A DNA stretch of 47,508 bases, taken from contig JAEOUG010000060.1 of NCBI GenBank assembly GCA_016839445.1, forward strand, positions 1-47,508, written 5' to 3'. A model generated the notes under the pieces. The model was not told the DNA's origin and did no database searches. It saw only the letters and a program-made list of their open reading frames with translations. Each line of letters opens with the position of its first letter. The stretch's first letter is position 1. Position numbers and translations under genes: made by a program. Below are positions 9,647 to 17,925 of this stretch, one piece after another. Source of the DNA: Candidatus Thorarchaeota archaeon (GTDB lineage: Archaea; Asgardarchaeota; Thorarchaeia; Thorarchaeales; Thorarchaeaceae).

Positions 9647-9754
9647 TGGTGCTCCGGCCGGGATTCGAACCCGGGTCGGGGGATCGAGAGTCCCCCATGC
9701 TGGGCCGGACTACACTCGGTCCGTTTGACAGATTATCAAACGGTCTACCGGAGC
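9647..9754 (-). tRNA. tRNA-Glu(CTC) with 30-nt BHB intron at position 10/11 (intron 9715..9744)
   Basis: Minus strand reads GCTCCGGTAG[ACCGTTTGATAATCTGTCAAACGGACCGAG]TGTAGTCCGGCCCAGCATGGGGGA-CTCTCGA-TCCCCCGACCCGGGTTCGAATCCCGGCCGGAGCACCA. CCA is encoded. Confidence 0.93.
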
Positions 9755-16405: not shown

Positions 16406-16509
16406 GCGGCCGTAGTCTAGTATGGTCAGGACCGGAGCTTCCCAAGCTTCTAACCCGAGTCGATCTCTCATCCAGGATCGCGGGAATTCAAATCCCGGCG
16501 GCCGCACCA
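16406..16509 (+). tRNA. tRNA-Gly(CCC) with 27-nt BHB intron at position 53/54 (intron 16460..16486)
   Basis: GCGGCCGTAGTCTAGTATGGTCAGGACC-GGAGC-TTCCCAA-GCTTC-TAACCCGAG[TCGATCTCTCATCCAGGATCGCGGGAA]TTCAAATCCCGGCGGCCGCACCA. A TTTTATC box lies at about 16374-16380. Confidence 0.92.
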
Positions 16510-16526
16510 CTTCTGCGTCAGGTTTA

Positions 16527-16650
16527 TCCTACACAATGAGTTAGAGATAGTGGCGAGTGATGATTTCCATGACCCCGATGAGTCCGTGAGGACGATGATA
16601 TGGATCTTGAGTTAGGAGCTCGCCAATACTTTCGGTCACCTCCTACACAA
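16527..16650 (+). repeat. 10-bp direct repeat TCCTACACAA (16527-16536 and 16641-16650)
   Basis: Two exact copies read directly from the sequence; they flank the structured element. Confidence 0.75.
16549..16632 (+). ncRNA. Putative structured small RNA with two K-turns (C/D-box-like)
   Basis: Terminal stem TGGCGAGT/GCTCGCCA, box-C-like GTGATGA, internal stem TCCATG/TATGGA, and apical GTCC-GTGA-GGAC hairpin flanked by ATGA/GATGA. TTTATC lies 29 nt upstream. Confidence 0.5.
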
Positions 16651-16719
16651 ACATCCATTTAATCGTACAATCTACAAACGCTTTTAAGCCAGAATCTAGA
16701 ATTACAGTTTCGGAGTGCG

Positions 16720-17925
16720 ATGGTTCACGACTACGTAGAAGACGAACTCAGCAAACGCAGTGTCTTCAAGTCAGAGCAGTTCCTATCGATTGACTATGTT
16801 CCAGAGAACCTACCACACCGCCAGAATGAACTGAGAACCCTTGCGCAGAACTTCAAGACGCTCATCGACTCTCCTGGTCAGACAAGTGTCAAATTCATCG
16901 TGGAGGGTCCTGTAGGAACAGGCAAGACCGCCGTAGTGAAACGTTTCTCGGAGCAGATGTTTCAAGCTGCAGACAGGCGGAATATCAGACTTCACACAAT
17001 TCATGTCAATTGCCGTGTCAACAAGACGGAATACCTAGTCTTCCTGAGAGCCCTACGCGAATTCAAACCAGAGTTCCCACGACGAGGGCACTCTCCCGAG
17101 GAACTCCTTCAGATGCTAGTAGAGGTTCTCGATGAGGAAGATCGGTACCTGCTTCTCATACTAGACGAGCTGGACTACTTCATCAGACAGAGAGGCGCAG
17201 ATATTCTCTATGATCTTACCCGGCTAACTGATGACAGGCTAAACGCCAGACAACGCGTTTCAATCATCAGCATAGGGCGCAGGATACCCCTTGACGAAGA
17301 TATTCTCGATTCTAGTACGCTTAGCACCCTGCAGCGAAATCTGCTTCGCTTCAATAGATATGACCGTATTGCGCTGTATGATATCCTACGCGACAGAGTG
17401 GACATGGCCTTTCGCAAGGACGTTGTGATGGAAGACACAGTCCAAGTGGTGGCTGACATTGCATCGGCTCCTGGTGATGCCAGATATGCTATCGAGCTTC
17501 TTTGGAGAGCTGGGAAGCAAGCAGACCGCGACATGAGTTCCAAGGTCATTCCAGACTACGCTCGCCGCGCGAAAGCAGACACTCACCCCGAGCTGCGAAA
17601 GGAGGTTCTTGCTAGTCTCCCTGCTCATCAGAGAATACTCCTCCTTTCTGCGGCCAGGCAGTTGCGAGAGAATCGTGGTGCCTATGTCACCATGGGTGAG
17701 GTTGAGGAAATGTATCAAACAGTCTGTGAGGAGTACGATGAAGAACCCAGATCACACACACAGATTTGGGAATGGGTTCAGGATCTCACGTCTCACGGTG
17801 TCATTGATACGAAGAAGTCAGGTTCTGGCCAGAGAGGACAGACCACTCTCATTGGGCTTTCAGACGTTCCTGCTGATATGCTCGAGGGGTTCCTGTCAGA
17901 CCTGCTTGATGATAATGACTCATGA
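16720..17925 (+). CDS. cdc6: Orc1/Cdc6 replication initiator
   Basis: DYVPENLPHR, Walker A GPVGTGKT, HVNC, Walker B LDELD, GDARYAI, and C-terminal winged helix ending GQRGQTTLI. TTTTAA box at about 16682. Confidence 0.97.
   Translation: MVHDYVEDELSKRSVFKSEQFLSIDYVPENLPHRQNELRTLAQNFKTLIDSPGQTSVKFIVEGPVGTGKTAVVKRFSEQMFQAADRRNIRLHTIHVNCRVNKTEYLVFLRALREFKPEFPRRGHSPEELLQMLVEVLDEEDRYLLLILDELDYFIRQRGADILYDLTRLTDDRLNARQRVSIISIGRRIPLDEDILDSSTLSTLQRNLLRFNRYDRIALYDILRDRVDMAFRKDVVMEDTVQVVADIASAPGDARYAIELLWRAGKQADRDMSSKVIPDYARRAKADTHPELRKEVLASLPAHQRILLLSAARQLRENRGAYVTMGEVEEMYQTVCEEYDEEPRSHTQIWEWVQDLTSHGVIDTKKSGSGQRGQTTLIGLSDVPADMLEGFLSDLLDDNDS

Follow-up and report, generated by a model that had tools for sequence, protein, structure and literature searches.

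A degenerate box C/D sRNA encoded upstream of cdc6 in Thorarchaeota: a predicted guide for the wobble base of tRNA-Leu(CAA) with a second guide complementary to tRNA introns

Introduction

In Pyrococcus abyssi, the guide upstream of box D of the box C/D small RNA (sRNA) sR47 methylates C34 of tRNA-Leu(CAA) in vitro (PMC3413156), and in P. furiosus that nucleotide has likewise been predicted as a C/D target (PMC7668247). Pyrococcus is described as having four C/D sRNAs for position 34, one for tRNA-Leu(CAA), one for tRNA-Leu(UAA), one for tRNA-Met and one for tRNA-Trp; within the sections of the review cited here, sRNAs that target tRNAs leave their other guide without a target, and an intron is involved only in the case of the tRNA-Trp intron guide (PMC7994747). 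Asgard tRNA genes are described as unusually interrupted in the part of a 2026 preprint on which we draw. Here we analyze an element in a stretch of DNA 47,508 nt long from a Candidatus Thorarchaeota archaeon (assembly GCA_016839445.1, contig JAEOUG010000060.1, positions 1 to 47,508; the window hereafter), where it lies between a tRNA-Gly gene and cdc6. The element probably belongs to the box C/D sRNAs, its boxes being degenerate, and does not form a new class of RNA; the sRNA would be about 75-82 nt in size and is encoded by positions 16551-16625 of the forward strand. The guide upstream of its D box faces C34 of tRNA-Leu(CAA). What is new is the partner of the other, the D' guide, which on the sequence evidence lies outside the coordinates originally considered, in the introns of two tRNA genes.

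Results

A conserved and covarying RNA

A DNA search returned matches in 53 of 61 related genomes, some of them to the tRNA part only, and in 36/36 genomes of the window's own family. In each of the 30 relatives' loci first fetched, the element sits between tRNA-Gly and cdc6. Together with loci derived from Cdc6 matches, the fetched loci gave 74 that carry the element and an alignment of 46 distinct sequences. All 46 share four GA dinucleotides, the AU of both bulges and the AUGA of the C box and of the C' box; the first spacer always contains UGACCCC, the second GAUCUUGAGU.

The structure scored for covariation consisted of the basal stem, two pairs beyond kink-turn (K-turn) 1 and the apical stem, 14 pairs in all. 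Within it 93.6% of cells are paired, 8 of the 14 pairs change on both sides and none of 500 shuffles matches this, while sliding the structure along the alignment lowers the share of paired cells to 23-64%. The eight pairs of the basal stem (95.4% of cells paired) show changes from G-C to A-U and from U.G to C-G or U-A. Just beyond K-turn 1, the pair U16564-G16615 occurs as U.G, A-U, U-A, C-G and G-C, and U16565-A16614 as U-A and G-C. The apical stem (95.6% of cells paired) has both-side changes at all four pairs, and the loop it carries is variable: GUGA is peculiar to the window's genome, with GUAU, GAAA, UAAU and others in relatives. Because compensatory changes occur in both stems, this is an RNA under selection, whose structure is conserved and covarying. 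Folding energy is favorable on the plus strand (-25.6 kcal/mol, z = -2.67, 0/200 shuffles as good) and nearly equal on the minus strand (z = -2.65, 4/200 shuffles as good), so that energy alone does not tell the strands apart and conservation decides between them.

An earlier reading of the window's letters, the original prediction, had proposed an L7Ae-bound double K-turn RNA at this place. The basal stem, the two GAU bulges with their tandem GA, the apical hairpin, the TTTATC box and the U tract are all where it put them, and the structural conservation it called for in metagenome-assembled genomes (MAGs) of relatives is there, in the GA dinucleotides as in the covarying pairs. Two of its details are not conserved. 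The GNRA loop is confined to the window's genome, and the rod-like fold with self-paired guides depended on a middle stem, UCCAUG/UAUGGA, that can form in the window's sequence but has no compensatory change in the alignment, is paired in 76.8% of cells and has its first pair in 5 of the 46 sequences.

Box C/D architecture and distribution in Asgard archaea

From 5' to 3', the RNA has a C box, a first guide, a D' box, the hairpin, a C' box, a second guide and a D box, and its ends are joined in a terminal stem; K-turn geometry fixes the register of the four boxes. Guide spacers of 11 nt (16567-77) and 12 nt (16602-13) fit the spacing of about 12 nt in archaeal C/D RNAs. Both K-turn sites carry the sequence signature of a helix, an RAU bulge and invariant GA/GA, and the two signatures are putative L7Ae-type binding sites. 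The C box, AUGAUUU, agrees with RUGAUGA at 5/7 positions and the D box, AGGA, with CUGA at 2/4, adjoining the 8-bp covarying stem. Homologues in other Asgard lineages carry CUGA and AUGAUGN boxes, which makes the window's sequence a degenerate member of a family with the C/D consensus: in four distant members of the alignment (L081-L083, L085) the D box, the D' box or both read CUGA, with AUGAUGG or AUGAUGU as C and C' boxes, and many of the 26 aligned rows of distant Asgard homologues have canonical CUGA boxes.

The window's own genome (G000, 90% complete) encodes L7Ae (PF01248, 94 bits), Nop5 (PF01798, 216 bits) and fibrillarin (PF01269, 302 bits), the last two in adjacent genes on contig C29 and L7Ae on contig C7. 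By the established rules for box C/D RNAs, these three proteins would assemble on the sRNA into a methyltransferase ribonucleoprotein (RNP). The same genome has an open reading frame (ORF) of about 242 aa at G000:C102:22780-23130 (+) with a weak fibrillarin-family match (24.4 bits, below cut-off), which is located immediately upstream of a pair of tRNA genes that includes tRNA-Leu(UAA).

In Rfam release 15 the element stays below the gathering threshold of every family and is unannotated, as originally described. In E-value mode, its sole plus-strand matches are to two eukaryotic C/D small nucleolar RNA (snoRNA) families, both weak: SNORD33, with 17.9 bits against a threshold of 44, and SNORD103, with 14.6 bits against one of 45, their E-values being 2-5. 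The original prediction had left a choice between an atypical C/D guide with degenerate D boxes and a new class. Box order, 11- and 12-nt spacers, K-turns, distant CUGA boxes and the genes for Nop5, fibrillarin and L7Ae speak for the former, and the CUGA boxes of distant homologues place the family among box C/D sRNAs.

A covariance model built from the 46-sequence alignment was run on 151 genomes sampled across the Asgard phylum and gave exactly one match per genome in 98 of them. By family, matches came from 26/26 genomes of f1 (the window's own), 13/13 of f5, 15/19 of f12, 6/6 of f19 and 6/25 of f9. The D-guide core is present in 25/26 of the aligned distant Asgard rows, the exception (L195) reading AAUCUUGAGU.

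The D guide faces the wobble base of tRNA-Leu(CAA)

We took tRNA places from Rfam, which gives 32 in the window's genome; ARAGORN is poor there (22 calls, some spurious). Among these 32 loci, the D guide forms its best duplex with tRNA-Leu(CAA) (G000:C6:11872-11984), in which ARAGORN puts an intron of 27 nt behind position 37. In the mature tRNA the anticodon arm has the sequence GACUCAAG followed by AUCC, and its nucleotides from G30 to C41 pair with 16613-16602. This duplex between the D guide and the mature target GACUCAAGAUCC has 11 Watson-Crick pairs and one G.U, with U16601-A42 as a thirteenth pair. The fifth guide nucleotide upstream of box D (position N+5), G16609, stands opposite the wobble base C34. 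When the guide was shuffled and set against the unspliced tRNA genes, 5/500 shuffles reached the observed energy. The target is conserved in 20/20 distinct tRNA-Leu(CAA) genes of relatives, as GACUCAAGAUC and then AUCC of exon 2, and a scan of the whole genome with the D guide gave one further perfect 12-mer, about the chance expectation. The substrate oligonucleotide used with sR47 contains a 12-mer identical to GACUCAAGAUCC (PMC3413156). By box C/D rules, the D guide would direct ribose methylation of C34 in tRNA-Leu(CAA), yielding Cm34.

A search of rRNA and tRNA for complementarity, which the original prediction had pointed to, proved the decisive test: its targets lie in tRNA, and neither guide has a conserved site in the rRNA searched, four 16S and two 23S sequences of the same genus (the window's genome has a partial 16S and no 23S). 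Candidates from the rRNA search were rejected, namely a 9-nt match of the D' guide at about nt 155 of 23S, which falls in a variable loop and is absent in one relative (G015), and two other matches that lie outside rRNA genes. The neighboring tRNA-Gly has no complementarity to the guides visible by eye. In this genus the 16S and 23S genes are themselves unlinked, with no small-subunit rRNA match within about 3 kb upstream of 23S (L040, L042, L088-L092).

The D' guide matches islands in tRNA introns

The core of the D' guide, UGACCCC, is complementary to a GGGGUCA motif in the introns of pre-tRNA-Met(CAU) and pre-tRNA-Leu(UAA). This island is found in the pre-tRNA-Met intron of 30/30 Thorarchaeota genomes, where the surrounding intron is variable in sequence and length, and in the pre-tRNA-Leu(UAA) intron of 29/30; it occurs in 0/20 tRNA-Leu(CAA) introns. 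It begins 28-34 nt after N34 in Met and 17-19 nt after it in Leu, and pairs over 7-11 contiguous bp with each genome's own D' guide. In the window's genome the heptamer occurs in 1/32 tRNA loci, and one of the best D' guide duplexes is held by the 61-nt intron of a pre-tRNA(CAU) at G000:C102:27553-27690. This tRNA(CAU) and those of relatives (L124-L153) have a T loop of unusual sequence, AUCGAAG, in which position 54 is A, and their intron keeps a covarying 5' hairpin and a GAUGAG able to pair with the anticodon loop.

In other Asgard lineages both partners differ. The D' guide of G075 (family f19) and G049 (f3) reads UCUGACCCC, and the matching island GGGGUCAGA is found in the pre-tRNA-Met intron of both genomes and in an insertion in pre-tRNA-Leu(UAA) of G075. 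The Met intron site of G049 came from a pattern search, and genes for tRNA-Leu(CAA) and tRNA-Leu(UAA) are absent among the 20 intron-containing tRNAs fetched from that genome. In G040 and G109 (f5) the D' guide reads UCUAGCCCUU, and AAGGGCUAGA stands in the introns of pre-tRNA-Met and pre-tRNA-Leu(UAA) of both. Away from the complement of the sRNA gene itself, AAGGGCUAGA has three matches in G040 and six in G109, two in each genome being those in the two introns; the reversed-pattern control gives two and none, respectively. Between lineages, three positions differ on both guide and island. That the two change together across Asgard lineages argues that this RNA-RNA contact is under selection, and we regard the pairing of D' guide and intron as very probably real.

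A docking mechanism and its alternatives

Taken as a whole, the locus is probably best explained as a box C/D sRNA that guides Cm34 formation in tRNA-Leu(CAA) and whose D' guide pairs with tRNA introns. In the mechanism that we favor, the intron island would bind the D' guide and so dock the RNP; the D guide could then still methylate N34 despite an imperfect match, and one sRNA would serve three tRNAs: Leu(CAA), Leu(UAA) and Met. Against the D guide, the anticodon loop of Leu(UAA), ACUUAAGAUC, has a G.U at N+5, and that of Met, ACUCAUAAUCU, has two central mismatches, at N+7 and N+8. As the island is intronic, methylation of N34 would have to precede splicing. We put the chance that intron motifs let a single RNP methylate the wobble base of three tRNAs before splicing at about even or slightly below, judging from sequence comparisons.

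Several observations favor docking. Islands are borne by just the two precursors in which the anticodon loop comes close to matching the D guide, and their tRNAs, Leu(UAA) and Met, are position-34 targets of separate sRNAs in Pyrococcus (PMC7994747). An exact 9-mer search of the 90%-complete G000 genome turned up no further C/D-like guide directed at C34 of Met or U34 of Leu(UAA). The spacing of the guides points the same way. On the D side, the window and the three distant rows measured all have a 12-nt spacer; on the D' side it is 11 nt (window, G075) or 13 nt (G040, G109), so that the island residue at N+5 is not conserved.

This spacing bears directly on a first alternative, in which the D' guide is an independent methylation guide for the intron G at N+5, for example to time splicing or to stabilize the excised intron, unrelated to N34 of Met and Leu(UAA), and Nm34 is made in tRNA-Leu(CAA) only. 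Box C/D RNPs methylate whatever pairs at N+5, the pairing between D' guide and intron is conserved and covarying, and in the Thorarchaeota genomes and G075 the N+5 position does fall within the duplex, on the fourth G. Yet the change from 11 to 13 nt shifts N+5, where a catalytic guide should hold its register as the 12-nt D side does, and it is hard to see what methylating an intron that is thrown away would achieve. Nor would an independent guide account for islands placed exactly in the two pre-tRNAs with a near match to the D guide and in none of the 20 tRNA-Leu(CAA) genes. We consider this alternative unlikely.

Rather less credible still is that the sRNA is an RNA chaperone or splicing regulator, with island pairing controlling the bulge-helix-bulge fold and no methylation at either site. 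It would draw on the same conserved contact with introns, and dual-guide archaeal sRNAs on nearby sites have been proposed as RNA-folding aids (PMC7994747). The island, however, is unlinked to the splice-site helix; in the Met intron the GAUGAG further 3' already accounts for anticodon-loop pairing; and a folding role leaves unexplained why the two precursors are near matches to the D guide. Finally, the reading as a regulatory RNA bound by L7Ae, or as a DNA element belonging to the cdc6/origin region, the new class of the original prediction, could appeal to the position of the element 95 nt upstream of cdc6, to the recurrence of this neighborhood in Asgard families f2, f3, f16 and f21 and to a conserved non-coding block that runs on to 16688, but compensatory changes in both stems mark an RNA under selection, homologues in f7 and f18 have no cdc6 within 1.5 kb, both guides have conserved tRNA partners and no complementarity to cdc6 was found, none having been searched for, and we give this reading hardly any weight.

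Against the docking sRNA that we prefer stand a number of points. Some concern the RNA as such. Its boxes are degenerate in the window's genus (5/7 canonical positions in C, 2/4 in D). Among sequencing runs, 20 rows contain part of the stretch and one, with a small share, is recorded as RNA; this lone RNA-library contig, 195 nt long and from a relative (22 differences), spans 16591-16760 and shows neither transcript ends nor a discrete sRNA, and DNA carry-over is possible. The element gave no sR47-type match in the Rfam scan, which leaves both homology and convergence as possible sources of its likeness to sR47.

Other points concern the intron partners. Against the window's tRNAs, 207/500 shuffled D' guides give an equally stable duplex; as the match is not significant in the window's genome alone, the case for the D' guide rests on conservation and covariation. 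The island in the window's own pre-tRNA-Leu(UAA) is weakened to GGGUCG, with 8 bp including one G.U. Exact probes gave no intron island in f12 (G080, G095, G129) or f18 (G060), the matches they did give, in G080, G129 and G060, being confined to the complementary strand of the sRNA gene, and one f12 tRNA-Leu(UAA) without an intron at 37/38 has a 6-nt partial match only. The Leu(UAA) island of G075 is found in an insertion on the 5' side of its anticodon arm, so a simple co-linear two-site topology is not universal. The intron-containing tRNA(CAU) could be Ile2 instead of elongator Met. Docking would also require that a C/D RNP tolerate a G.U at N+5 and mismatches at N+7 and N+8.

Features of the locus and its neighborhood

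The coordinates of the locus are collected in Table 1. At the position of TTTATC, 29/30 Thorarchaeota loci have an aligned GTTTA(T/A), with L023 deviating, and the sRNA locus probably carries its own promoter in this box; transcription may end at the U tract. The tRNA-Gly gene upstream has a TTTATC of its own at 16375-80, 31 nt before G16406.

Table 1. Positions in the window of the sRNA, its parts and the adjoining genes
Feature	Position	Strand	Remarks
tRNA-Gly(CCC), insertion of about 30 nt in T arm	16406-16506	+	Rfam tRNA 37.5 bits; gene missed by ARAGORN
TATA-like box TTTATC	16523-16528	+	Read from sequence; 28 nt 5' of sRNA stem
Basal (terminal) stem, 5' strand UGGCGAGU; C helix of K-turn 1	16551-16558	+	Pairs with 16618-16625
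K-turn 1	GAU bulge 16559-61; GA 16562-63 facing GA 16616-17	+	Sequence signature
Degenerate C box AUGAUUU	16560-16566	+	AU 16560-61 (with G16559) in bulge; GA 16562-63 in sheared pairs
D' guide, 11 nt	16567-16577	+	Invariant core UGACCCC 16570-76; proposed docking guide for intron motif GGGGUCA
Degenerate D' box AUGA	16578-16581	+	UGA invariant 46/46; CUGA in L082, L083, L085 and many distant Asgard homologues
Apical stem-loop GUCC-GUGA-GGAC; C helix of K-turn 2	16582-16593	+	Covarying stem, variable loop
K-turn 2	GAU 16594-96; GA 16597-98 facing GA 16580-81	+	Sequence signature
Degenerate C' box AUGAUAU	16595-16601	+	AU 16595-96 (with G16594) in bulge; GA 16597-98 in sheared pairs; AUGAUGU/AUGAUGC in L082/L083
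D guide GGAUCUUGAGUU, 12 nt	16602-16613	+	N+5 is G16609, facing C34 of tRNA-Leu(CAA)
Degenerate D box AGGA	16614-16617	+	GA invariant 46/46; AUGA, ACGA, AAGA or CUGA in family members
Terminal stem, 3' strand GCUCGCCA	16618-16625	+	Pairs with 16551-16558; covariation
UUU tract, possible 3' end/terminator	16630-16632	+	ACTTT after stem in most Thorarchaeota loci; T-rich tails after stem in distant homologues
cdc6/orc1 gene	16720-17925	+	ORF of 401 aa; relatives 65-82% identical in Thorarchaeota MAG records

Like the window, the genomes G048 and G058 carry the 3' end of a tRNA a short way upstream of the sRNA. ARAGORN calls no tRNA in the window and Rfam two, tRNA-Gly(CCC) and a partial match at 9658-9716 (-) covering model positions 9-63; calls missed by ARAGORN are typical of heavily interrupted Asgard tRNA genes.

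On the other side, the conserved block that starts at 16551 runs past the sRNA to about 16688; its non-coding part 3' of the sRNA (16626-16688) is aligned in all 30 Thorarchaeota loci and contains ATACTTTCGGyAACCTCC, TTTAATCGTAC and GCTTTTAAG. The last of these is probably the TATA box of cdc6, about 32 nt before its ATG at 16720, and the first two could be origin or regulator sites. The sRNA gene adjoins cdc6 in families f2, f3, f16 and, in divergent orientation, f21 (L181, L184, L186, L187, L190), and the f7 and f18 loci (L182, L183) have no cdc6 within 1.5 kb. The position upstream of the replication initiator given by the original prediction is real, and the neighborhood is partly conserved; a functional tie finds no support, the guides pointing to tRNAs.

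Discussion

As a Cm34 guide for tRNA-Leu(CAA), this sRNA would belong to a known class and, apart from being unannotated, would be nothing out of the ordinary. A single-copy sRNA recognizable in most Asgard families is nonetheless a handle on RNA-guided modification in the closest archaeal relatives of eukaryotes, and the guide that would otherwise count as an orphan appears here to have a co-evolving partner in tRNA introns, which offers a testable reason for the persistence of particular tRNA introns in Asgard archaea. If docking is true, these introns gain a selectable function, and the system would parallel, on the archaeal side, the accessory base-pairing of eukaryotic small nucleolar RNPs; guide RNPs would then widen their substrate range by a second contact, a theme known from those particles.

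The window RNA would be a functional analogue of sR47 as Cm34 guide. It is longer, its D and D' boxes are degenerate, its K-turn at C'/D' is closed by a stem and its second guide has conserved intron partners. Pyrococcus sRNAs use K-loops, and to our knowledge Pyrococcus tRNA-Leu genes have no introns. In its role, sR47 is the same: with the guide upstream of its box D it targets C34 of tRNA-Leu(CAA) for 2'-O-methylation, within the same 12-nt target GACUCAAGAUCC, and it works with L7Ae, Nop5 and fibrillarin (PMC3413156). The position-34 guides of Pyrococcus include among their partners the same three tRNAs, Leu(CAA), Leu(UAA) and Met, with one sRNA per tRNA, whereas here a single sRNA would contact all three, its second guide pairing with introns (PMC7994747).

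Two further archaeal systems connect wobble-base methylation with introns. The sR-tMet of Haloferax volcanii is reportedly a box C/D RNA some 75 nt long whose C'/D' motif is unusual and which produces Cm34 in elongator tRNA-Met at the stage of the intron-containing precursor; its guide is said to pair continuously across the anticodon loop and the start of the intron, with no separate docking site described. The intron guide of euryarchaeal pre-tRNA-Trp is likewise a case in which an intron is needed for guided Nm34 and modification comes before splicing; there the intron is itself the guide RNA, and here it would be a 7-10-nt complement of a guide acting in trans (PMC11408192, PMC7994747). 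The main-text portions of these two reviews drawn on here hold no description of a co-evolving intron docking site for a second guide, literature searches likewise brought up none, and in the corresponding main-text portion of the 2026 preprint on Asgard tRNA introns the terms guide, methylation, sRNA, tRNA-Met and tRNA-Leu have 0 occurrences.

Outside the archaea, the bacterial enzyme TrmL also serves more than one of these tRNAs, making Cm34 or Um34 in both tRNA-Leu(CAA) and tRNA-Leu(UAA), but as a protein-only SPOUT enzyme that uses no guide RNA (PMC4615657). The logic proposed here is that of eukaryotic box C/D snoRNAs, in which extra complementarity outside the guide is reported to aid methylation; in that system the substrate is yeast pre-rRNA and the contact is made by accessory regions of the snoRNA, whereas in the Asgard sRNA a whole second guide position would be given over to it and the partner would be a tRNA intron (PMC3116282).

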